From an uncultured Candidatus Sumerlaeota bacterium (GTDB lineage: Bacteria; CAYMEV01): a stretch of DNA of 64,000 nt. Both the position numbers and the translations under genes were made by a program. Below, in pieces: positions 33,188 to 49,246 of the stretch. Where the stretch lies: positions 1 to 64,000 of the forward strand of contig CAYMEV010000015.1 in NCBI GenBank assembly GCA_964389675.1. Direction: 5' to 3'. Positions within the stretch are counted from its first letter, which is position 1. Each line of letters begins with the position of its first letter. A model generated the notes under the pieces. The model was given only the letters and a program-made list of their open reading frames with translations, was not told the origin of the DNA and searched no databases.

Positions 33188-34336
33188 TCAGACCACAATC
33201 CTCGGAAGGGAGCTGTTTAACAATGTGACTATCTCATAATTAATGCTGTTTGCAAAACCTGCCAGGCTTTCTACACTGATGGATTTTCCTTCTTCAAAGC
33301 CTATCAATGTAACCGTATCATACGGACGAATATCGGGGATATCGGTAATATCGATCATGCATAAGTTCATGCAGACTCTTCCTATCACCTTTGCAAACCT
33401 GTTATTCACAATCACGGAAGCCCTGTTGCCAAAAGCTCTCAGATACCCGTCTGCATACCCCACTGGCAGAACACCTATTCTTGTCCTCCTTGTTGTAATA
33501 TAGCTGCATCCGTATCCCACAGGAGAATTCTCACCAATATCCTTTATCTGTACTATTTTTGTTTTAAGCGATAAGACAGGCTTAAGACTATCATCCCCAT
33601 CATGCCTTTCCCTGTATGAAATAAGTGTTTCCCTGCTTGGCCAGAGCCCATAAAGCCCTATACCTGAACGAACCATTGTAAACTGTGTTGAATCGAAAAG
33701 TAATGCAGCTGCTGTACAGGCACTGTGGATATAGTCAGGAGTAAAACCGCGGAATTTAACCCTGTTAACAGCTGATTCAAAAATGTACAGCTGCCTGTAA
33801 GCAAAACTGTGGTCAAGAGTGTCTTCAATATTGGCAAAATGCATGGATAAGCCGGACAACTCAATATTATGGCTTTTTTTTATCAGATCAAGGAAATTTT
33901 CAAGATCCTCTGGCATAATTCCCTGTCTGGATGTACCGGTATCAATTTTTAAATGAATCACTGCTTTGGTATTCATTCTTTTTGCTGTATTATCAAGGGC
34001 AGTTATTGTATTTCTGTCATAAACCGTTAAATGCAGCCTGTTGAGCAGGGCATATTCCATGTCTCCCGGCAATACCGGCCCCAGAAGCAATATTGGGATC
34101 ATGTCCAGCCCACTTTCAATAAGCTCTTTCGCTTCCCTGATTTCATGAACAGCAAAAAGGTCTGAATATTCGGCAATAATTCCTGCTGTTTCAATGAGGC
34201 CATGTCCATACGCATTGGACTTCACAACAGAACAGAACCTGACTCCCTCTTTCAGATGGCTCTTCAGGAAAAGGATATTGTGAATCAGGTTATCTTTTGA
34301 CAGCTCTATCCATTTATGGTATTGATTATTTAACAT
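33188..34336 (-). CDS. alr: Alanine racemase
   Basis: VVKSNAYGHG (PLP Lys), HLKIDTG, HFA, GIGLYG, VGYADGY, GRVCMN, INYE. Start reassigned to ATG 34336. Confidence 0.93.
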   Translation of the reverse strand: MLNNQYHKWIELSKDNLIHNILFLKSHLKEGVRFCSVVKSNAYGHGLIETAGIIAEYSDLFAVHEIREAKELIESGLDMIPILLLGPVLPGDMEYALLNRLHLTVYDRNTITALDNTAKRMNTKAVIHLKIDTGTSRQGIMPEDLENFLDLIKKSHNIELSGLSMHFANIEDTLDHSFAYRQLYIFESAVNRVKFRGFTPDYIHSACTAAALLFDSTQFTMVRSGIGLYGLWPSRETLISYRERHDGDDSLKPVLSLKTKIVQIKDIGENSPVGYGCSYITTRRTRIGVLPVGYADGYLRAFGNRASVIVNNRFAKVIGRVCMNLCMIDITDIPDIRPYDTVTLIGFEEGKSISVESLAGFANSINYEIVTLLNSSLPRIVV

Positions 34337-34413
34337 CTGGTTGGCTAATGATTTTACACTTATATTATAAATCAAATCAAGAAAAATAAGACTTCGTTTC
34401 CCTAAGGCGCTAT

Positions 34414-35448
34414 ATGATCTCAGATACAACCTTTGGCAGTATATTACGATCCACAGCCAAAAATTGTGGATTTGACCTTGCAGGTGTAACAAAACCCTTT
34501 GTTTCTGCATATGTGGATAAGCTTCGCGAATATGTGTCATCCGGAAAATATGAGGATATGATGTGGCTTGCTGATACTATGGAGAAAAGAATAGATATCA
34601 GAAAATCCTTCAGTGGTACGAGATCAATAATAAGCCTGGGGGCCTGTTACAGGAAGGGGAAAAGGCTCTGTGACAACAGGGCTTTTGCCTATATAAGCTG
34701 CTATGCAAGGATAAATGATTATCACAGGGTATTAAAAGATTCTGCAAAAAAATTCATAAAAATAATATCAGAGATTATGGACAGGGATATCAAATATCGC
34801 ATATTTGTTGATTCAGCACCCATACTTGAAAAGGAGATCGCCCAGAAAGCCGGATTAGGCTTTATCGGGAAGAACACTCTCCTTATCAATCCGTATTTAG
34901 GTTCCTTTATATTTCTTGCTGAAATATTAACTGATATTGATATTGAGTATGAAAACGAATATGTTCCTGCAAACTGCGGAGACTGCACCAGATGCATTGA
35001 GGCATGCCCTACAGGAGCGCTTAGTGAGCACAGGCTTGATCCTTCAAGATGTATTTCTTATCTTACAATTGAAAATAAGAAGATTATCCCTGATAATATA
35101 AAGAAAAAAATGGGAAATATGATATTCGGGTGTGATTTATGCCAGACCGTGTGCCCGTACAATAAAAGAGAGGAGTATCCTGGCAGTCTATTTAAGGCAG
35201 GCCATTTACACCAGGTTGACAGGGATAAACTGCAGGAGCTCCTGATGATGGATGAATCACATTTTTACAAAAGGTTCAGTGATTATCCTATATACAGGGC
35301 CGGCTTTCATGGATTTAGAAGGAACCTTTTAATATGCATGGGAAACTCAGGGATTTCAGCTTTAAAGCCCCTTATCCAGCCGTTTTTAAGCGACCAGAAT
35401 TATGTAATAAAGGATGCTGCAGCTTACGCACTGAACGAGCTGGGCTGA
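34414..35448 (+). CDS. queG: Epoxyqueuosine reductase
   Basis: ISCYARINDYH, FVDSAPILEK, AGLGFIGKN, CGDCTRCIEACPTGA, CISYLTIE, FGCDLCQTVCPYN. Confidence 0.93.
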   Translation: MISDTTFGSILRSTAKNCGFDLAGVTKPFVSAYVDKLREYVSSGKYEDMMWLADTMEKRIDIRKSFSGTRSIISLGACYRKGKRLCDNRAFAYISCYARINDYHRVLKDSAKKFIKIISEIMDRDIKYRIFVDSAPILEKEIAQKAGLGFIGKNTLLINPYLGSFIFLAEILTDIDIEYENEYVPANCGDCTRCIEACPTGALSEHRLDPSRCISYLTIENKKIIPDNIKKKMGNMIFGCDLCQTVCPYNKREEYPGSLFKAGHLHQVDRDKLQELLMMDESHFYKRFSDYPIYRAGFHGFRRNLLICMGNSGISALKPLIQPFLSDQNYVIKDAAAYALNELG

Positions 35449-35472
35449 AAAACATGCCTGGTATATGGAAAA

Positions 35473-35547
35473 CGGGGCCGACGAGGCTCGAACTCGCGAC
35501 CTCCGGCGTGACAGGCCGGCATTCTAACCAAACTGAACTACGACCCC
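35473..35547 (-). tRNA. tRNA-Asp (GTC), CCA not encoded
   Basis: GGGGTCGTAGTTCAGTTTGGTTAGAATGCCGGCCTGTCACGCCGGAGGTCGCGAGTTCGAGCCTCGTCGGCCCCG folds as a cloverleaf. Confidence 0.96.
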
Positions 35548-35549
35548 GA

Positions 35550-35623
35550 TGGGCGGTATAGGGCTCGAACCTACGACCCTCGGCTTGTAAGGCCGATGCT
35601 CTAGCCAACTGAGCTAACCGCCC
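35550..35623 (-). tRNA. tRNA-Val (TAC), CCA not encoded
   Basis: GGGCGGTTAGCTCAGTTGGCTAGAGCATCGGCCTTACAAGCCGAGGGTCGTAGGTTCGAGCCCTATACCGCCCA folds as a cloverleaf. Confidence 0.96.
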
Positions 35624-35663: not shown

Positions 35664-35832
35664 TAAAAATAATTCCTTATTTATTTATTTTCTTTGCATG
35701 AATATTCTGCTAATATTTTACTGCATTTTTAGCCTTATTGATATTATCATGATGAATTATATCATTGAAAATAATAAAAATTGCAATATGATTCACTAAT
35801 TTGAAATAAACAATATAAATGGGAGGTGCATT

Positions 35833-37200
35833 TTGTCTCAGATATCAGAACTAAAATCTTTCTGCAAAAAAGAAAATATAGAAATGATTGATCTAAAAGC
35901 CATTGACCTTAAAGGTAAACTGCATCACATTACCTTTCCTGCAGATGAACTTACTGATAATCTGCTAATTGACGGCATCGGATTTGATGGGTCCAGCTAT
36001 GGTTTTGCAAAGGTTCAGATGTCGGATATGATCCTGATTCCGGACATCATAACTGCTGTGATCGACCCCTTCAGAAAGGTGAATACTCTATCAATATTTG
36101 CCAATATCCATATTACCGATAATGACAGGTCACGATTTCCTCAAGATCCGAGGTTCATTTCAAGAAAAGCTGAAGAATGCCTTAAATCTCTTGGGATTGC
36201 TGATGAAGCTTTGTTTAACTTCGAATTTGAATTTTTTCTTTTTAATGATATCTCAATCTCGACATCAACATTTGATACCCATATCAAGATCGAACCTGGA
36301 GAAAAAATGCATTTTAATGCATACCATATTTCCAATCCTGATGACCTTTACTGCGAATTCAGGGATAAGACGACACAAATGCTGTTATCATACGGAATAC
36401 CGATAAGGTACCATCATCATGAAGTTGGAGGCTTTGGACAGCAGGAAATTGAAACCACGCTTCGGCCTTTACACAAAAGTGCAGAAAATGCGATTCTGGC
36501 AAGATATATTATGCAGAACATAGCCTATGAAAACCAGATCGTAATTACCTTCATGCCTAAACCGCTGTATAATCATCCTGGAAGTGGGCTGCACAGCCAT
36601 ATGATGCTTAAAAAAAACAAAAAGAACATATTCTATAAGAAGGGGGCATATGCAAATCTCAGTCAGACTGCCTTCAATTTTATAGGCGGTGTACTGGCTC
36701 ATTCAAGCAGCTTATGCGCTTTCACAAATCCAAGTACCAACTCGTTCAAACGCCTGGTTCCCGGCTTTGAAGCTCCTGTAACAAAAACATTTGGCAGAAG
36801 CAACAGGTCTTCAGCAATCAGGATACCGGCCTATATAAGTGAGCCTGGACAGGTAAGGTTTGAATACCGGCCCCCTGATTTCACCTGTAATCCCTATCTT
36901 TCTCTGTCTGCAATACTCATGGCGGGTATAGATGGCATAGTCAATAAGATCGACCCCGGGAAGGCCGGATTCGGACCATTTGATACCAACCTCTATGATT
37001 CAGACAGGCATGAAATAAAATTTCTGCCTCAGCATCTTGACCAGGCACTCAAAGAGCTAAAAACTGACCATGCTTACCTTTCAAGAAATGATGTGTTCCC
37101 TGAAAGCTTTATAGATCAGTATATAAAGGTTTTGAAAAAGGATTGCGATGATATAAGCAATTATCCGAATCCTAAGGAATTTGAGCTCTACTTCAGCTGA
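35833..37200 (+). CDS. glnA: Glutamine synthetase type I
   Basis: GIGFDGSS, EFEFF, HHHEV, QQEI, TFMPKP, GSGLHSH, KRLVPGFEAP, NRSSAIRIP, RFEYRPPD, NPYL. TTG start with GGAGGT RBS. Confidence 0.93.
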   Translation: MSQISELKSFCKKENIEMIDLKAIDLKGKLHHITFPADELTDNLLIDGIGFDGSSYGFAKVQMSDMILIPDIITAVIDPFRKVNTLSIFANIHITDNDRSRFPQDPRFISRKAEECLKSLGIADEALFNFEFEFFLFNDISISTSTFDTHIKIEPGEKMHFNAYHISNPDDLYCEFRDKTTQMLLSYGIPIRYHHHEVGGFGQQEIETTLRPLHKSAENAILARYIMQNIAYENQIVITFMPKPLYNHPGSGLHSHMMLKKNKKNIFYKKGAYANLSQTAFNFIGGVLAHSSSLCAFTNPSTNSFKRLVPGFEAPVTKTFGRSNRSSAIRIPAYISEPGQVRFEYRPPDFTCNPYLSLSAILMAGIDGIVNKIDPGKAGFGPFDTNLYDSDRHEIKFLPQHLDQALKELKTDHAYLSRNDVFPESFIDQYIKVLKKDCDDISNYPNPKEFELYFS

Positions 37201-37204
37201 TAAA

Positions 37205-38680
37205 ATGGAAAAAATAAAACAGGATCTGCTAAAAAAAATAGATGCTGCACCGGTAATCCATATCATTGGAATGACAGGAACAGAGGGCGAATCTGCACTG
37301 AAGTTTCTTGCTGCCAATACAGATAAAAGGCTTATGGCACATGATTTTTCAGGAAGGAACTATCTGTGGCACTCATATAGAAAAGCAAGGGAGTTCTTCT
37401 CAAGGTCATCAACTGACCGGGATTTTCAGGAACTTATGGATATAAGGGCTGAATTGAAGCTTGACCAGGATTATCTGAGCGGCATTAATAAGGAGGATAT
37501 TATCCTTCTGCCTCAGGACTGGGACAGATACCCTGCAAATAAAGAAGCGGTTAAATCCCATAGCGATAAAGGCGGGACTTCATTTTTGATATTCGACCTT
37601 TATTACCTTTTTTTCAAAGGGACAATAATAGGAGTAACCGGAACCAAAGGGAAAACTACCTCTTGCCACCTTGCCTGCAATCTCTTAAAAAACTGGGGGA
37701 AGAAAGCATATATATCAGGAAATGACAGGTATTCAAGGCAGGCACTGCCAGTCATCACAAGCTATGCCAAAGAATCATATCTCATACTTGAAACATCAAA
37801 CAGGCATCTGAAACATACTTTTTTCAGGCCGCACATTGCAATGCTTACAAATATAGATGCAGACCACCTGGAAGAGCATGACTCGGATATGGAAAAATAT
37901 GCCTTTACCAAGCTGAATATTTTTGGAGAAAGATCCTGTGCAATTCTTCCTTTGGAAATATACCAGAGATACAGAGACTGGATACCCTCCCGTCCCATTA
38001 TATTATTCAGCACCAAAGCAAAGGACGATGAGATGCCTGCGCCTGATATCCCTCATATTCTCATAAAAGATGATAAGGCTATCGCCAGGGAGAATGATAA
38101 ATTATGCACACTGCTGGACATTTCAAAAATCGAATCAAAAACACACACAGCAAACATTCTCCTGATATCAGGGCTTGCCTACATGCTTAAAATACCCTCC
38201 CCTATACTTCTTAATACTATAAATTCCAGGCTTGAAATCAGGAGCAGGCTGGAATATATAGGAAACAAATCAAAAATCCAGTTCATTGACGATCTTTCTG
38301 CAACCACGCCATTTGCTGCAGTTCATGCAATTGAATCAATAAAAGATAATATAATCCTTATATGCGGGGGAGATACAAAGGGGAATGATTACAATATTCT
38401 GGTTGAAAAACTCAATTCAAAAAAGGTCAAAAGGATATACCTCCTGCATGGCCCTGATTTAGAAAAATCTCTTATTTATGAGCTAAAAGACAGAATAAGG
38501 GATTTATCCAAACTGGTCATTTTCGACAGTTTTAAAGATGCCTTTTTTTCTGCATACTCAAGTGCAGAGAAGGGAGATACAATACTGCTAAGCCCTGCTT
38601 CTGCCTATTTTTACTCAAATTTTATCAGATCAGCAAAAAATAGCATGAGAGTTTTGTTTAAAATGCTGAAAACCAGATAA
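37205..38680 (+). CDS. Divergent MurD-like Mur ligase
   Basis: GVTGTKGKTT, ILETS, TNIDADHL...Y...K, RLE, IDDLSATT, LICGGDTKG and LLSPA motifs, with several substitutions relative to canonical MurD. Confidence 0.8.
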   Translation: MEKIKQDLLKKIDAAPVIHIIGMTGTEGESALKFLAANTDKRLMAHDFSGRNYLWHSYRKAREFFSRSSTDRDFQELMDIRAELKLDQDYLSGINKEDIILLPQDWDRYPANKEAVKSHSDKGGTSFLIFDLYYLFFKGTIIGVTGTKGKTTSCHLACNLLKNWGKKAYISGNDRYSRQALPVITSYAKESYLILETSNRHLKHTFFRPHIAMLTNIDADHLEEHDSDMEKYAFTKLNIFGERSCAILPLEIYQRYRDWIPSRPIILFSTKAKDDEMPAPDIPHILIKDDKAIARENDKLCTLLDISKIESKTHTANILLISGLAYMLKIPSPILLNTINSRLEIRSRLEYIGNKSKIQFIDDLSATTPFAAVHAIESIKDNIILICGGDTKGNDYNILVEKLNSKKVKRIYLLHGPDLEKSLIYELKDRIRDLSKLVIFDSFKDAFFSAYSSAEKGDTILLSPASAYFYSNFIRSAKNSMRVLFKMLKTR

Positions 38681-38695
38681 AAGGACTATTTTATA

Positions 38696-39775
38696 ATGAA
38701 GGATGGAATTTGGAGTTTCGATCATGTGTTCAGCCTGGATATTCCGGAAAAGCAGAGGATTACTCTTGGTGAATGCAATAATACAGTATTAGGATTCAGA
38801 CATAATGATCATAAGAGGCTTTTTGTACTAAGGGAGGATGAAAATCCTTCAGGTTCTCACAAAGACAGATATATGGCCTATACTCTGTCATACCTTCAGA
38901 AAGATAACTCTTCAGGTTATGTAATAAGCACATCAGGAAATGCTGGAATATCTCTGGCAAGGTACTCACAGCATATTGGAAAACCCTCAATAATCTGCCT
39001 GAAGCCTGACTCATCTGATGAGATTATTGAAAGGATACTGTACTATAAAGGCCATCCTGTCCTTACCGACAAACCTATAAACTTTGCAAAAATAATAAAC
39101 AGGACGCTCGGTTATCTCGATATAAGAGCAGGCCTTAATCCATTGTCAGACGAGGGTTACCGTTCAATTTCCGCTGAGATTTTTCAAAAAGGATGCCCTG
39201 TTGATTCTATCTTTGTCTTTTCAACATCGTTTTCAACTGCTTTGGGTATCCTGGAAGGATATAAATACCTCAATAAGCTTTTTGGAGTTCAGATACCAAG
39301 GGTATTTGCCGTTCTTTCAGGTGATTTTCATCCCTTTCCGGATATAATATCGATAACCAGGATCAATGATTTCCTCAATAAAATTGTCTGCAAGGACAAT
39401 ATCCGTTTTACGGCAATAGGCTGCAATTCTGAGACTCTTTGGAATGATAAAATACGCATCGGCGGGTTCTGCAAGCCTGAAAGGTTCAAAGAGGCTTGCT
39501 CCAAGCTTTCCGAATTCAACGGGGAGCTGATATATGTCAACAGAATGGATAATCCTGAGATCAGGTCTTTCTTTGATTATTACAGTATCAATACATCCTA
39601 CCAGAGTACATGCGCATTGTACAGCGCCTATCTTCTACAAAAGCTCAGGATCGTATATGCCCCGATTGTCATTCAATCAGGATTTCCTTCTTCAGCCGCC
39701 AGTTCAGGAAGGTACAGCAAATATATAATAAATTCCCTCAAAGATCTGATGAGTTACATGGATAAAATGCGATGA
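38696..39775 (+). CDS. PLP-dependent fold-type II enzyme (threonine synthase/cysteine synthase-like)
   Basis: ITLGE, LREDENPSGSHKDR (PLP Lys), ISTSGNAGISLA, GYRSISAEI. Confidence 0.8.
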   Translation: MKDGIWSFDHVFSLDIPEKQRITLGECNNTVLGFRHNDHKRLFVLREDENPSGSHKDRYMAYTLSYLQKDNSSGYVISTSGNAGISLARYSQHIGKPSIICLKPDSSDEIIERILYYKGHPVLTDKPINFAKIINRTLGYLDIRAGLNPLSDEGYRSISAEIFQKGCPVDSIFVFSTSFSTALGILEGYKYLNKLFGVQIPRVFAVLSGDFHPFPDIISITRINDFLNKIVCKDNIRFTAIGCNSETLWNDKIRIGGFCKPERFKEACSKLSEFNGELIYVNRMDNPEIRSFFDYYSINTSYQSTCALYSAYLLQKLRIVYAPIVIQSGFPSSAASSGRYSKYIINSLKDLMSYMDKMR

Positions 39776-41085
39776 ATAATTGTAAACACCGGATATATGA
39801 CCACAATAGCAGCCTTATCAGGAATACTGTTTCCAAAATTCTTGACAGATACCCGGTAAAAAAACCCGTCTATATTATAGATAAAGATGATCATAAGCTA
39901 TATATCTCTGAACAGATTTTCCCCGGTTTATCCCTGATATACAGCAACTGTTCAGGCCACAACTCATCCAAGGAAATTCTCAGGAATTTAAAAGGCTATG
40001 AAAAAGGATCTTCTGTTATCTTCTTCAAGCCGACATTTGAACTTATTGATTTAGCCGGGAAAATGGGCCTTGTACCTCTCCAAAATGACTACAGCAATAA
40101 TCTTCGAATTGAGAACAAGATATTTATATATAAGAATGCACCTGTTTTATCAAAAGGCCTGTTTCCACCCTCTCTCATCTCAGAAATCTCAAATGTTGAT
40201 TTTCAGGAGTCTGCGCAAATTTTTGGCATCCCATTTTTTGTTCAGTTCAGCTCAGGATATAGCGGTAAAACTACCTTCAAGATAGGTAATCCTGAAGAAT
40301 TGACAAGGCTTAAATCAATTTATAAAAACCTGCAGGCAAAGATATCCAGAGCAGTTCCTGGAGAAACATATACCCTTAACGGCTTTTTTCACAGGCATAA
40401 GTTCATTTATTCTGACCCTTTTATTCAGATATCAGGAAAAGGGGATTTAAATCCAAATACCTGCGGGAGTGCGGGCAATATATTCAGATATCTCGATCTG
40501 GACAGGGCTATCTTTTCATCTTTTATGGATATGGCCGGAAAGCTGCTTGAAGCAAACAATTTCCAGGGATTCTTCGGAATTGATTTTATAAATGATAAAA
40601 AGCCGTATCTTATTGAAATAAACCCGCGTTTCACAACATCCGCTTCAATCCAGTCCGAACATTCCATACTGAAAGGAAGGATGCCGGAATTTGTTTTTGA
40701 GATCATCCGTCTGATACTCACTTCAAAAGGAGAAGCAGCATTAAAATATGGAATTGATCTGCTTTCTGAAACTGAAGCAGATATGATCTCATACAGCTCG
40801 AAACTGAATATAACACAGCTCATACAGTATAACACCGGCAAAGATGATTACATTGCTGATGGCATGCTTGATACTGGAACATATAAAATCAAAGGCCGTT
40901 TTTTGAGAAAATATAATTCAAACATTCTGATCTCAAAAATAAACAGGGAAGATATAATCCTTTTTGCACCCATACCGGGCAGGAGAATCTCCTATGGAAA
41001 TGAGATAGCCCGCATAATATTTAATTCAGACAGCTTTGGCCTTGATAGAATGATAAATATTCTGAATAACAGATTTTGCCGCTGA
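39772..41085 (+). CDS. ATP-grasp domain protein
   Basis: IENK, PFFVQFSSGYSGKTTF, FQGFFGIDF, YLIEINPRFT. ATGA overlap with the PLP enzyme gene. Confidence 0.78.
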   Translation: MNNCKHRIYDHNSSLIRNTVSKILDRYPVKKPVYIIDKDDHKLYISEQIFPGLSLIYSNCSGHNSSKEILRNLKGYEKGSSVIFFKPTFELIDLAGKMGLVPLQNDYSNNLRIENKIFIYKNAPVLSKGLFPPSLISEISNVDFQESAQIFGIPFFVQFSSGYSGKTTFKIGNPEELTRLKSIYKNLQAKISRAVPGETYTLNGFFHRHKFIYSDPFIQISGKGDLNPNTCGSAGNIFRYLDLDRAIFSSFMDMAGKLLEANNFQGFFGIDFINDKKPYLIEINPRFTTSASIQSEHSILKGRMPEFVFEIIRLILTSKGEAALKYGIDLLSETEADMISYSSKLNITQLIQYNTGKDDYIADGMLDTGTYKIKGRFLRKYNSNILISKINREDIILFAPIPGRRISYGNEIARIIFNSDSFGLDRMINILNNRFCR

Positions 41086-45343: not shown

Positions 45344-48300
45344 ATGAAAAACAGCCAGATACTCGGAAGATACAATATTATAAGGCAGATAGGCACTGGA
45401 GGAGTGGGGGAGGTGTTCTATGCCTATGATACTTTTCAGAAAAAGCATGTTGCTATCAAAAAGATCAGGCAGGAACTGTCAGGCTTTATAAAAAATGATA
45501 TTCTGCAGTATGAATTTAAAATCATATCTAAAATAAAGGATCCATACCTAATTTCAGTGTATGATTTTTTCATGCTTCCCTATAATATTGATTCCTTTTT
45601 TACCATGGAATATATAGATGGAACTGTTTATGACCGCCTGATACCATCCATACCGCTAAGAGACCATATCCTTATTGCCCTGAAAGTATCAAGGGCTCTT
45701 AATACACTTCATCAGCAGGGAATACTGCATCTTGATATAAAGTCCTCGAATATCATGGTCAGAGAAAGCAATGGTGAACCTGTCCTGATGGATTTTGGAC
45801 TGTCCCGCGAAAGAGGTAATACTGCGATGTTTTTCATGCAGGGCACATTAAATTATATGGCTCCTGAAATAGCCGAACAGAAAGATATTGATATATATAC
45901 CGATATCTATTCTCTTGGTATTCTTTTTTATAAAATCTTCACAAAAAGATTCCCTTATTCTGTCTCCAGGCATGCTGATATATCAGGTCTCTCTAAAAAC
46001 AGGCAATACAAAGAGCCATTACAGCTAAACAGCAATATTCCGGACCCCCTTAATAACCTTATTCTTGACATGATAGAATATGAACCGCAAAAAAGGCCAA
46101 AAAGCATTGATCCTGTACTGAGGACTCTTATATCTTTAATTGGCAGGAATCAGAATGAAATTATCAAACAGAATACTTCATCATACCTGTTTTACTCACG
46201 CACAATAGGCAGGGAAAAAGAGCTTCAGAAAACCAAAAGTGCCATAACAGACCCTTCTGCGAACCTGCTAAATATTATAAATGTCAGAGGTCAAAGGGGT
46301 ATAGGCAAAAGCCATTTCTTAAAAGATATTAAATTCTTCCTGCAGTCCAGGGGATTTTTTGTAATAAGCACTAATTGCATAAAATCCCTGGAGGGAAGCT
46401 ACTATGTAATAGTTGATCTGCTCATGAAGCTTCGCAATCTCGTTGATTATCTCCTGCTGCCAATGGGTAAAACAGATTTACCATCAGGGCATGAAAAGCC
46501 GTCCAATATCGATGATTCGACTATCTTTGTAAATTCCATACTTGAGACACAGGAAATCCTTGAAAAGAAGGCTCCTTTCAGTTTCAGGGAAGATCTTAAC
46601 CCAAAAAGGCTGCAGGAGCTTTCATTAAAGATAAAAAACGCAGAATTGCAATATAGAGAACCTGCCACAATCAGATCGTCAATGGACATTATATACCCAA
46701 GATCAATAAAAGAGCTGTTCTACAGATCATTTGATATTCTAAGAGAAGCAAGCGAAATTATTAAAATTGCAATAATAATAGAAGATCTTTCCTTTGATAA
46801 AAGCATTCAGTCATTTGCAGGATATTTGAACAGCTACCTTGACAATACGAGAATACCTGATCTCTTAATCCTTATTTCCGATGGTTCAGATAGCCTTCAT
46901 ATATTTAAGCCAGATAATAATACAAAATCACTCACAATTAATCTAAAGGCTTTCGGCGTTGAAGAAACACAACTCTTTGCATCCACCATGCTCGGATATA
47001 AGATAGATCAACGATTTGGGAAGCTCATTTTCCGGTTCACAAAAGGAAATCCTGACCAGATACAGGAATTTTTAAGGTTTCTTTTTAACAAACGCTGCAT
47101 AGCCTGGAACGAATCCAGGTGGGAGATACGCAAAATCCCTGACCTGAAACAATATGACATGAAACACATAGTAGTTGAGAACCTGAAACATCTAAATAAA
47201 AACCAGCTCAATATAGTAGCAATACTGGCAATAGCAGGGATCCCGCTGATGCAGGAGATATTGGAGAAATGTTTCAATAAGGCTGCCGGTCTTATTGAAG
47301 AGCTTGATCTACTTGAGAGACTGAGGATTATAGAAAGCAGGTACCTGATTACTGGACATAAGTCTTATTCACTCTCATTTTATGACTACAGCACTCATTT
47401 AATGAGCATTCTCACAGATTCTGAATATGAAAACCTGATTCAAAATTTAAGCTACAAAATGGTGGATTATTATTTCAAATCAGGCAACTATTCAGAAGTA
47501 ATCTCTCTGCTATGCTACAAATCAGGGTTATTCCCCTGGAGTTATGTATTTTCAAAACACACAGCAGTCAGGCTGATAGATACCTTCTCATACAAAGAAG
47601 CACTCAGGCACCTTAACCTTTCCATTTACAGTCTGACTGCTGCAAAGCATCAGAAGCCTGAAAACCACGACAGAAGGCTCCATAAGCTTTATACCCTATA
47701 TATGTCACTGTTCCACAAAACAAATAACAGGGAAATGGTCTTCGTATACCTGAAGAAATCTCTCAGGCTTGCATACAAAACGAAAAGCAGATACAAGCTG
47801 TGCGATAATCTCATCTTCAGATTCAATTATTATGTCATGAAAAGGGATTATAAGAAAGCATGCATAAGTCAGAAAAAGGCAATACCTGTTTCTATGCATA
47901 TGAACCTGGAGAAATATGTCAAAGTGCTGGGAAACTATGCCATAACCTTTTATTATCTGAAAGATATGGCTAATTATATTAAAGCGATGAAGAAGCTGGA
48001 AAAGCCTCTTATAAAACTGGGCAACAAAAAAATGTCCGGAATATTCTATATAAATATGGGTGTATACTTCAGAACCCAGTATGAGCTTGATAAAGCATAC
48101 AAAAACTATGAAAAGGCATTAGCGATAGCGGAAGAGACAGGGTCGCCCTACCTGTTTTCCCTTTGCTATGGGAACCTGTCAACCTGCTATTTTTATAAAA
48201 AAGATTTTGAAAAAGCTGTTAATTTTCAGAATATATCCCTGGCTTATTCAAAAGCCATATCAGATCTGTCAGGAATGGTATATTCAACAGGCTTGCTGCT

Positions 48301-49246
48301 TATTTATCTCTTTTTTGCAATGATGTATTCCAAAATTGAGGAACAATTTCTCCTGATGATATCAGATATCAGGAAATATAATATTCAGATCGAGATATAC
48401 AGGCTTGCTGAATCCCATGTCCTATATCTTTTGTCGCTATATAATACAATGAATCTGACAGGGTTATTCTCCTGTTCTTCAAAAATCAGGCTATCAGATA
48501 CTGATGATAGAGTGAAGAATACTGTAATATTTAACAGACAGCTTGCATTGCTTTACTATAACCTGTTCATTCTATATTCGCGAAGCAGGACCGCTTCAAG
48601 CCTTGCCGTTCTCAGAAGCAAGATGAACTACCTTGAGCTTAATAATATAACAGGCTCCTTTGAAACTGAAGAATTTAGAAAAATATTCAATATAATTGAG
48701 ATCTTTTGCAGGTATATCGAAAATTTTGATACCCGGGAAGAAAATAAGATCATAAAACTTATCAGGGACCTTAATGCAGATATTCATTATAACCCGATTT
48801 TTATTTTCAATAAAACCATGCTTATTATAAATATTGCTTTCCTTAAACTCATCAGATACCGTAAGGATGCACCAGACAAAAGCATATCCGCCTGCATTGA
48901 TCTGCTTGTTTCAGAATCATTTTATATCTCAAAGCCGCTTGCACTATTTTTCCTTTCCTGCTATAAAATCCAGGCCGGCATTGAGACCGGCAGTAACATA
49001 CACTCTCTTATCTCATCATATAAAGAGCTTAAGCACATGGAGAATAAATACCAGTTTCTGGTTGCTTGCTTGCTTTGCAAAAGAATTTTATCAGTCAGGC
49101 CCTCATATTTTTCTGACGAAGAATCATCCCGTATATCTGAGGATATTAAAAGCATTGAAAACCAGATCATCGTCCAGCTCCCGGAACAGCACAGAACATC
49201 ATTTAATAGAATCTTTACCTCCCAGCAGCAGTCTTTATTTCTTTGA
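45344..49246 (+). CDS. Ser/Thr kinase - AAA/STAND-like NTPase - TPR protein
   Basis: Kinase GTGGVGEV, AIK, HLDIKSSN, DFG, YMAPE. NTPase IGREKE, GQRGIGKS, IIIEDL, TKGNP. TPR-like C-terminus. Confidence 0.85.
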   Translation: MKNSQILGRYNIIRQIGTGGVGEVFYAYDTFQKKHVAIKKIRQELSGFIKNDILQYEFKIISKIKDPYLISVYDFFMLPYNIDSFFTMEYIDGTVYDRLIPSIPLRDHILIALKVSRALNTLHQQGILHLDIKSSNIMVRESNGEPVLMDFGLSRERGNTAMFFMQGTLNYMAPEIAEQKDIDIYTDIYSLGILFYKIFTKRFPYSVSRHADISGLSKNRQYKEPLQLNSNIPDPLNNLILDMIEYEPQKRPKSIDPVLRTLISLIGRNQNEIIKQNTSSYLFYSRTIGREKELQKTKSAITDPSANLLNIINVRGQRGIGKSHFLKDIKFFLQSRGFFVISTNCIKSLEGSYYVIVDLLMKLRNLVDYLLLPMGKTDLPSGHEKPSNIDDSTIFVNSILETQEILEKKAPFSFREDLNPKRLQELSLKIKNAELQYREPATIRSSMDIIYPRSIKELFYRSFDILREASEIIKIAIIIEDLSFDKSIQSFAGYLNSYLDNTRIPDLLILISDGSDSLHIFKPDNNTKSLTINLKAFGVEETQLFASTMLGYKIDQRFGKLIFRFTKGNPDQIQEFLRFLFNKRCIAWNESRWEIRKIPDLKQYDMKHIVVENLKHLNKNQLNIVAILAIAGIPLMQEILEKCFNKAAGLIEELDLLERLRIIESRYLITGHKSYSLSFYDYSTHLMSILTDSEYENLIQNLSYKMVDYYFKSGNYSEVISLLCYKSGLFPWSYVFSKHTAVRLIDTFSYKEALRHLNLSIYSLTAAKHQKPENHDRRLHKLYTLYMSLFHKTNNREMVFVYLKKSLRLAYKTKSRYKLCDNLIFRFNYYVMKRDYKKACISQKKAIPVSMHMNLEKYVKVLGNYAITFYYLKDMANYIKAMKKLEKPLIKLGNKKMSGIFYINMGVYFRTQYELDKAYKNYEKALAIAEETGSPYLFSLCYGNLSTCYFYKKDFEKAVNFQNISLAYSKAISDLSGMVYSTGLLLIYLFFAMMYSKIEEQFLLMISDIRKYNIQIEIYRLAESHVLYLLSLYNTMNLTGLFSCSSKIRLSDTDDRVKNTVIFNRQLALLYYNLFILYSRSRTASSLAVLRSKMNYLELNNITGSFETEEFRKIFNIIEIFCRYIENFDTREENKIIKLIRDLNADIHYNPIFIFNKTMLIINIAFLKLIRYRKDAPDKSISACIDLLVSESFYISKPLALFFLSCYKIQAGIETGSNIHSLISSYKELKHMENKYQFLVACLLCKRILSVRPSYFSDEESSRISEDIKSIENQIIVQLPEQHRTSFNRIFTSQQQSLFL

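Follow-up and report, generated by a model that had tools for sequence, protein, structure and literature searches.

In the LysW/amino-group carrier protein (AmCP) systems of Thermus, Sulfolobus, Thermococcus and Streptomyces, which work with the ligases LysX/ArgX, the gamma-carboxyl of the carrier's C-terminal Glu receives the amino group of a substrate; tethered in this way, the substrate undergoes modification, and a hydrolase later sets it free. Glutathionylspermidine synthetase/amidase unites an ATP-dependent, amide-forming domain with a CHAP/NlpC-P60-type cysteine amidase, which cleaves the very bond so formed. D-glutamate at position 2 of the peptidoglycan stem peptide is nearly universal and essential, and three sources of it have been described: glutamate racemase (MurI), D-amino-acid transaminase (Dat) and the MurD2/MurL pair. 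Reviews of this pair, studied in Xanthomonas by Feng et al., describe it from bacteria without MurI and Dat and state that MurL epimerizes the nucleotide-dipeptide with no carrier or pyridoxal 5′-phosphate (PLP), releases AMP and has no known conserved domains (PMC8788868, PMC5808125). Here we analyzed a window of 64,000 nucleotides, contig C15 (CAYMEV010000015.1) in the genome of an uncultured Candidatus Sumerlaeota bacterium (GCA_964389675.1, hereafter G000; 3.57 Mb, 93.8% complete), in which genes for a MurD-like Mur ligase, a fold-type II PLP enzyme and an ATP-grasp ligase follow glnA. An original prediction made from the letters of the window had proposed that the PLP enzyme makes an unusual amino acid, which the two ligases would build into a stem peptide or a small peptide; its observation was confirmed and its interpretation partly supported. 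The triplet is, by homology, three parts of a conserved five-part module, of which the other two, a LysW-like carrier and an NlpC/P60 peptidase, are encoded on contig C10. We propose that the module supplies the D-glutamate of position 2 by an ATP-driven route on a tethering carrier, in place of glutamate racemase and canonical MurD, a reading to which we give somewhat better than an even chance and whose chemistry we infer.

The MurD-like ligase and the D-glutamate genes of the genome

In Pfam, the MurD-like protein matched Mur_ligase_M (65 bits) and Mur_ligase_C (43.9 bits), and no Pfam match to the MurD N-terminal domain was found in it. Its score against the murD model TIGR01087 was 175.2 bits, below the cut-off of 211.95, and the match covered only model positions 98–422; in the profile search this was nevertheless the best murD-model match in the whole genome. 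The corresponding proteins of G023, G054, G120 and G192, which like all compared genomes other than the sister species are kin to ours at the level of the same domain, exceed the cut-off (218–264 bits) with matches that start at 75–79, and in G054, G120 and G192 this late-starting protein is the sole MurD above the cut-off and adjoins the carrier. Aligned with solved MurDs, the ligase keeps the P-loop (GTKGKTT), the DH..H motif and the Lys of the AK..I motif, and reads DDLSAT for NDSK(A/S)T, ETSNRHL for ELSSFQL and, with a two-residue gap, SPASAYF--YSNF for SPAxAS(W/F)..(Y/F)xNF. We take the pocket loop and the ELSSFQL residues to be those that contact D-Glu. Most of these changes are common to 34 module-linked MurD-like proteins when set against 85 MurDs with the usual N-terminal domain, a comparison group mostly from the candidate phyla radiation (CPR); in the 34, the canonical loop SPxxAS-F..F-N...R is two residues shorter and its Ser, Asn and Arg are lost. 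The alignments thus bear out the earlier claim that the ATP motifs are kept while the substrate-contact stretches differ, except that the loss of the NDSK lysine, which it had counted among the differences, is not specific to the module. One MurD-like protein, in a record labelled Peribacteria (L057, 458–2509), carries a C-terminal DUF559 (endonuclease-like) domain.

As had been predicted, the ligase gene lies outside any division and cell wall (dcw) cluster. The dcw cluster is on contig C16, where rsmH, a penicillin-binding protein, MurE, FtsW, MurC, FtsA and FtsZ are encoded and murD is not. Besides the MurC-like and MurE genes of C16, the Mur family is represented in G000 by an Mpl-like ligase on C1 (345.2 bits, cut-off 388.7), which hints at recycling of wall tripeptides, by MurF on C11 and by a cyanophycin synthetase on C25 (950.2 bits). 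No canonical murD was found elsewhere in the genome, contrary to the idea that the ligase is an extra MurD. Neither was MurI found in G000 at its 93.8% completeness, nor a Dat above the cut-off (the best score was 49.2 bits against 277.45). The rest of the pathway looks ordinary: MurE is of the diaminopimelate (DAP) type (455.8 bits, cut-off 373), Ddl is canonical, Alr is present, and a DapF-like gene falls just under its cut-off (113.5 bits against 114.65). On these sequence grounds, only the MurD-like ligase is a candidate for the step at position 2, and no source of D-Glu is recognized in the genome. The search of the sister species, G001, and of G023 likewise found no MurI, no further MurD and no Dat.

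The conserved module and its carrier

The carrier profile had a single match in G000, the zinc-ribbon protein of contig C10, which scored 39.8 bits against Pfam Zn_ribbon_LysW (PF21344; cut-off 27) and ends in Glu-Pro-Glu-Lys. The NlpC/P60 protein encoded beside it has 297 residues and an N-terminus that, by eye, is not signal-peptide-like; we read it as a cytoplasmic peptidase. The congener G001, the only one in GTDB, keeps this pair as well as the whole neighborhood of the window. We link the pair to the other three genes by homology, by the sister species and by the binding prediction given below; taken this way, G000 holds all five module parts, split over two loci, and two of them escaped the original prediction because they are encoded outside the window. 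No Pfam or NCBIfam model covers the first ~180 residues of the NlpC/P60 protein. The genes flanking the pair encode elongation factor G and a metallophosphoesterase, and smpB and an N-acetylmuramoyl-L-alanine amidase gene are close by.

Scanning one genome per species with the ATP-grasp profile, we obtained 80 loci, many of which end at contig ends, so that the counts are lower bounds. By record title they come from many classes of Patescibacteria, from Anaerolineales, Dormibacterota and Planctomycetota, and, under a few labels, from DPANN archaea or Gammaproteobacteria. In 52 of the 80, the ATP-grasp gene directly follows the PLP gene; a MurD-like protein scoring at least 300 bits with the module-type profile is present in 23, both it and the PLP enzyme in 19, and an NlpC/P60 protein in 15. 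In G023, from an unrelated lineage, the MurD-like, PLP and ATP-grasp genes stand in the same order, behind a gene for a protein with a D-glutamate-cyclase-like domain (PF14336) fused to NlpC/P60, and both there and in G192 the carrier, this fusion protein, the MurD-like ligase, the PLP enzyme and the ATP-grasp ligase form one row; in G054 and G120 the carrier adjoins the MurD-like gene. According to PMC5339696, PF14336 is the former DUF4392 of mammalian D-glutamate cyclase. It was not found in G000 or G001, the fusion partner being specific to the G023/G192 type. Other parts of the module are fused as well: among 11 unusually long members of the ATP-grasp family, five carry an NlpC/P60 domain and two are PALP–ATP-grasp fusions, and in two Anaerolineales loci NlpC/P60 is joined to the MurD-like ligase (900 and 889 aa). 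The triplet therefore recurs across distant lineages, as had been predicted of a conserved, undescribed and peptidoglycan-linked set; we found no paper on the module in a literature search whose coverage excluded subscription journals, and it is apparently undescribed as well as widespread.

We searched for the carrier in the 80 loci using a profile without the last 12 alignment columns, so that the tail was not preselected. It identified 45 small open reading frames (ORFs) in 45 loci and one more inside a longer stop-to-stop frame (L090). All 45 carriers end in Lys, mostly as EEEK or IEEK, as do those of G000, G001, G054, G120 and G192, and the four Cys are invariant in 30 carrier sequences. 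The carrier is encoded on the strand opposite to its flanking genes in 41 of the 45 loci and is co-oriented in four (L039, L042, L062, L064), as also in the G192 and G120 loci. In the opposite-strand arrangement (L040, L045, L049, L053 and 37 others) it is wedged between the MurD-like and PLP genes, and its start is sometimes only a few bases from the PLP start. These patterns bear on the simplest alternative, namely that the ligase is a diverged but normal MurD beside unrelated metabolic genes with which it shares no function. Annotation pipelines would call the proteins of G023, G054, G120 and G192 MurD, since they exceed the model cut-off, but order and adjacency are kept across distant lineages, three kinds of fusion connect the parts, the carrier always ends in Lys and the binding prediction passed; we consider this alternative very improbable.

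In a sample of 301 genomes across bacterial families, the ATP-grasp profile matched 10 at E ≤ 1e-10. Strong matches (at least 280 bits) were those of G000, G001, G023, G054, G120 and G192, which belong to five genera. MurI was present in none of these six and in 219 of the 301 overall, its absence from G120 and G192 being read from their not being among the 219 matching genomes. The weak matches (137–197 bits; G015, G040, G082, G208) all occur in genomes with MurI and have no PLP neighbor; these four ATP-grasp proteins are paralogues. Further family members without a PLP neighbor (L093, L097, L101 and others) carry Planctomycetota and Saccharibacteria labels, among others, and three records labelled DPANN (L070, L047, L100) also hold members of the family. 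One of these, L070 (labelled Micrarchaeaceae), encodes the MurD-like ligase, carrier, PLP enzyme and ATP-grasp ligase, groups with Dormibacteria in the tree and looks like a mis-binned bacterial contig. In the ATP-grasp tree (FastTree) the window's protein and its sister form a long branch that is weakly joined (support 80–84) to Anaerolineales, G023/G192 and Dormibacterota.

Two further explanations can be weighed against this pattern. The carrier might make another wall component, such as the diamino acid of position 3 or a group that amidates or extends D-Glu at its alpha-carboxyl, with MurD using D-Glu from an unrecognized racemase. Known LysW systems make lysine, ornithine and arginine, and the DapF-like gene lies just under its cut-off; the module, however, sits with MurD, to which it is fused in two loci, and was not seen with MurE in such a relation, the neighborhood lacks the kinase, reductase, aminotransferase and deacylase genes that LysW pathways use, and the anticorrelation with MurI would be left unexplained. 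We regard this as quite unlikely. The second explanation, which seems to us equally improbable, is salvage: the NlpC/P60 peptidase, carrier, ATP-grasp and MurD-like ligases would recover D-Glu or L-Ala-D-Glu from imported wall fragments and make no new D-Glu. It would agree with the action of NlpC/P60 enzymes on wall peptides, with the Mpl-like recycling ligase on C1 and with the many module hosts that are ultra-small Patescibacteria, but it leaves no obvious role for the PLP enzyme, the part most tightly linked to the ATP-grasp ligase and sometimes fused to it. Moreover, at 3.6 Mb G000 encodes a DapF-like protein, Alr and Ddl, and growing cells would still need a net source of D-Glu.

Proposed chemistry and competing explanations

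The ATP-grasp ligase belongs to a large family with only distant named relatives. Its matches to ATP-grasp_3 (32.7 bits) and to the PRK06524 biotin carboxylase model (44 bits, cut-off 684) are weak, and no sequence relative at E below 0.1 was found among solved structures. Searching 1.84 billion proteins with a family profile gave 769 representatives at E ≤ 1e-30, whereas a word-based search collected only 8. The structure model is confident (predicted local distance difference test, pLDDT, 94.0), and its nearest folds, at template modeling (TM) scores of 0.52–0.56 and 9–16% identity, are biotin carboxylase, PurK, PurT, PurD and L-amino acid ligase. When the ligase was modeled with the C10 carrier, the complex scored 0.62 and the best of three controls 0.00; among reference pairs, 116 of 157 solved complexes score that high, as do 2 of 215 mismatched pairs, counts that apply only approximately here because we supplied our own alignments. 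At least 67% of the contacts agreed between runs, and the pLDDT of the partner was at least 77. The confident interface places the zinc-ribbon body of the carrier against residues 88–90, 108–118, 159–162 and 183–188 of the ligase, beside invariant columns. This predicted complex supports, without proving, binding of the ATP-grasp ligase to the C10 carrier, and a Lys-ended carrier is a likelier substrate for it than the stem peptide that the original prediction had in mind.

The PLP enzyme matched PALP in Pfam (88.8 bits), and its Schiff-base lysine, K56, does not vary across 53 family members. Among named models, threonine synthases come first, with scores of 30–60 bits that are far below their cut-offs (30.2 bits for the thrC model TIGR00260, cut-off 167.1), and a better ThrC-like gene (106.4 bits) is found on contig C6; the suspicion that the enzyme is no plain threonine synthase was therefore correct. 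Its model (pLDDT 92.4) comes closest to short threonine synthases (TM 0.70, 15–16% identity), including the Thermus enzyme 1uim (TM 0.70), and the list of similar folds also includes PLP-dependent aspartate racemase, serine racemase/dehydratase and cysteine synthases. To judge from the model, the fold permits racemization, without proving it.

Put together, these parts suggest the following route. The ATP-grasp ligase would use ATP to join the gamma-carboxyl of L-Glu to the epsilon-amino group of the carrier's last Lys, leaving the alpha-amino acid end free; we propose attachment through the gamma-carboxyl, so that the alpha-amino group stays free, as the PLP enzyme needs. The PLP enzyme would then invert C-alpha of the carrier-bound glutamyl residue. 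Its chemistry would stop at racemization because the gamma-glutamyl amide has the outline of O-phosphohomoserine but lacks the leaving group. The MurD-like ligase would join UDP-MurNAc-L-Ala (UDP-MurNAc being uridine diphosphate-N-acetylmuramic acid) to the amino group of the D-glutamyl residue, before or after its release from the carrier, and the NlpC/P60 peptidase, whose family is known to cut gamma-D-glutamyl bonds, would cleave the gamma-D-Glu-Lys link and free the carrier. Ligation on the carrier would agree with two features of the MurD-like ligase, its shorter pocket loop and, in Anaerolineales, its fusion to NlpC/P60, and release before ligation would agree with those loci of Patescibacteria in which the carrier set accompanies Mur ligases of lower score. 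A more specific version, in which UDP-MurNAc-L-Ala is coupled to D-Glu while the latter is still tethered and NlpC/P60 then releases the finished nucleotide-dipeptide, would mean that the precursor is part-built on a carrier protein with a one-way, ATP-driven inversion from L to D. We put it forward tentatively, as something that may well turn out otherwise; if it is true, carrier-tethered ligation is essential in much of Patescibacteria and in several other phyla.

The amino acid itself is where the original prediction and ours part. An unusual residue, made by the PLP enzyme through beta/gamma replacement or elimination, on or off the carrier, could replace or decorate the D-Glu of position 2 or enter a small peptide. 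Fold-type II enzymes of this shape mostly carry out replacement or elimination, with threonine and cysteine synthases and dehydratases as nearest folds; the amino-acid pocket of the ligase is remodeled; and known LysW-type carriers serve multi-step amino-acid synthesis. The module, however, holds a single modifying enzyme, its ligase is the sole MurD candidate, a canonical DAP-type MurE needs a free gamma-carboxyl on residue 2, and no export, nonribosomal peptide synthetase (NRPS) or tailoring genes were found near the cluster among the window's ORFs and their Pfam matches. Furthermore, the module tracks the absence of MurI, and the D-glutamate-cyclase-like and NlpC/P60 domains point to D-Glu. 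We favor ordinary D-Glu because MurI is missing, MurE is of the normal DAP type and domains linked to D-Glu travel with the module, and we hold the unusual amino acid to be unlikely.

Several observations count against a carrier-tethered route to D-Glu and should be considered with it. Which amino acid is loaded, which atom of the lysine is used and in what order the steps occur are matters that we infer. At 93.8% completeness the absence of murI or murD from G000 is not proven, in Chlamydia a DapF can double as glutamate racemase, and the Mpl-like ligase on C1 could import D-Glu as a salvaged tripeptide. The carrier and peptidase of G000 are not adjacent to the other three genes, only six genomes were positive, two of them congeners, and many Patescibacteria loci pair the carrier, PLP enzyme and ATP-grasp ligase with lower-scoring Mur ligases, so that the altered MurD is not always required. 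The 85 MurDs of the comparison group likewise lack the NDSK lysine. In the predicted complex, the tail of the carrier is not confidently placed in the active site, residue 45 being the only one among residues 45–50 in the confident interface. Finally, complexes of LysW with ATP-grasp ligases have been solved, and the binding score may partly reflect likeness to them; this worry is countered because no LysX/ArgX appears among the 50 best folds listed for the ATP-grasp model.

Surrounding features and comparison with known systems

The coordinates of the module genes and of the features around them are given in Table 1. The ORF coordinates agree with the original description of four co-oriented genes, with junctions of 4 nt between glnA and the MurD-like gene (37200 to 37205), 15 nt between the MurD-like and PLP genes and a 4-nt overlap between the PLP and ATP-grasp genes, which leave no space for a carrier gene among them.

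Table 1. Positions of the module genes and other features in the window and, where a contig is named, elsewhere in G000.
Feature	Position	Strand	Remarks
glnA, type I glutamine synthetase	35833-37200	+	455 aa; Pfam Gln-synt_N/C
MurD-like Mur ligase	37205-38680	+	ORF open from 37181 (499 aa); first ATG at 37205 gives the 491-aa form of the protein database; Mur_ligase_M/C
Fold-type II PLP enzyme, threonine-synthase-like in shape	38696-39775	+	359 aa; PALP
ATP-grasp ligase, large uncharacterized family	39772-41085	+	437 aa; weak ATP-grasp_3 match
LysW-like zinc-ribbon carrier	C10 80863-81015	-	50 aa; sole match to the carrier profile in G000
Carrier and NlpC/P60 pair	C10 79989-81015	-	20-nt overlap of the two genes
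tRNA-Asp (GTC) and tRNA-Val (TAC)	35472-35623	-	occupy most of the 385 nt from queG to glnA
Two promoter-like sites	35738-35792		score 10/12
Alanine racemase	33188-34540	-	450 aa
1300-aa ORF	45344-49246	+	downstream of the cluster
Mpl-like ligase	C1 558-1928
Cyanophycin synthetase	C25 14791-17466

From its profile matches, we read glnA as a true type I glutamine synthetase: it scored 318 bits for Gln-synt_C and 84.5 bits for Gln-synt_N in Pfam, 427.7 bits against the type I model TIGR00653, just below the cut-off of 429.15, and solved glutamine synthetases match it over the full length (334.6 bits). A second glutamine synthetase, of type III, is encoded on contig C20. The gene is probably co-transcribed with the three downstream genes, and we considered it as a part of the module. 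It is 85% identical to its G001 counterpart, against 53% for the ligase, 53% for the PLP enzyme and 47% for the ATP-grasp protein, and it adjoins the module in one of the 80 loci, on a contig of G001 itself; one metagenome contig also has both, with the same identities as G001, and thus comes from the same organism. We rejected glnA as a module part, as it stands beside the module only in this genus and its sequence behaves as that of a housekeeping glutamine synthetase; it is an incidental or genus-specific neighbor, and an incidental one had been foreseen as one of two possibilities.

Upstream of glnA, beyond the tRNA genes, lie QueG and Alr, and downstream of the cluster a DUF4097 protein and Ogg (Pfam). 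The Pfam match of the alanine racemase begins at residue 82, leaving an N-terminal extension of ~80 residues, and its ORF overlaps the start of queG (34414) on the opposite strand. A scan for promoters and terminators gave counts not above those of shuffled sequence (17 against 19.0 and 5 against 4.9) and hence no evidence on the limits of the operon; the two promoter-like sites ahead of glnA are of a kind that shuffled sequence yields at least as often. DNA of the cluster is present in metagenome runs from marine sediment, none of the listed runs being RNA.

If the carrier route to D-Glu is true, it would be a fourth way to the D-Glu of the wall, mechanistically distinct from the others, and would explain how many genomes without murI, including those of most module-bearing Patescibacteria and of the window's lineage, build their walls. 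LysW-type carriers would then serve cell-wall synthesis as well as amino-acid biosynthesis, with an inverted tail chemistry in which Lys stands for Glu. The parts of the module are possible narrow-spectrum targets, and annotation of its proteins as "MurD," "threonine synthase" or "biotin carboxylase-like" is misleading.

Compared with the canonical pair of MurI (or Dat) and MurD, neither MurI nor Dat was found in G000, G001 or G023, and the MurD found here, encoded away from the dcw cluster, diverges in its N-terminal region and carries a shorter pocket loop. Glutathionylspermidine synthetase/amidase resembles those members of the family that combine ATP-grasp and NlpC/P60 domains, but it has other substrates and another role, and in G000 the two are separate proteins encoded on different contigs. 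The likeness to MurD2/MurL, as the reviews describe that pair, lies in a variant MurD beside an ATP-dependent device that ends in the D-Glu of position 2, with a one-way inversion paid for by ATP, which for the module is our proposal. By the same account, the device differs, being an epimerase there and a PLP enzyme, ATP-grasp ligase, carrier and peptidase here, and the taxa given for MurD2/MurL (Gamma- and Alphaproteobacteria and rare actinobacteria) do not overlap those of the module. With the LysW/AmCP systems the module shares a zinc-ribbon carrier of ~50 residues with an acidic C-terminal tail and a Zn_ribbon_LysW score above the cut-off, an ATP-grasp partner predicted to bind it and, as proposed here, an amino acid that is modified while tethered and released by a hydrolase. 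It differs in its ATP-grasp ligase, which is not LysX-like, in that no kinase, reductase or aminotransferase genes stand beside either G000 locus, and in its partners, MurD, the PLP enzyme and NlpC/P60, which place it in cell-wall synthesis. Above all, the tail of its carrier ends in Lys where that of LysW/AmCP ends in Glu, and would offer an amine rather than a carboxyl.

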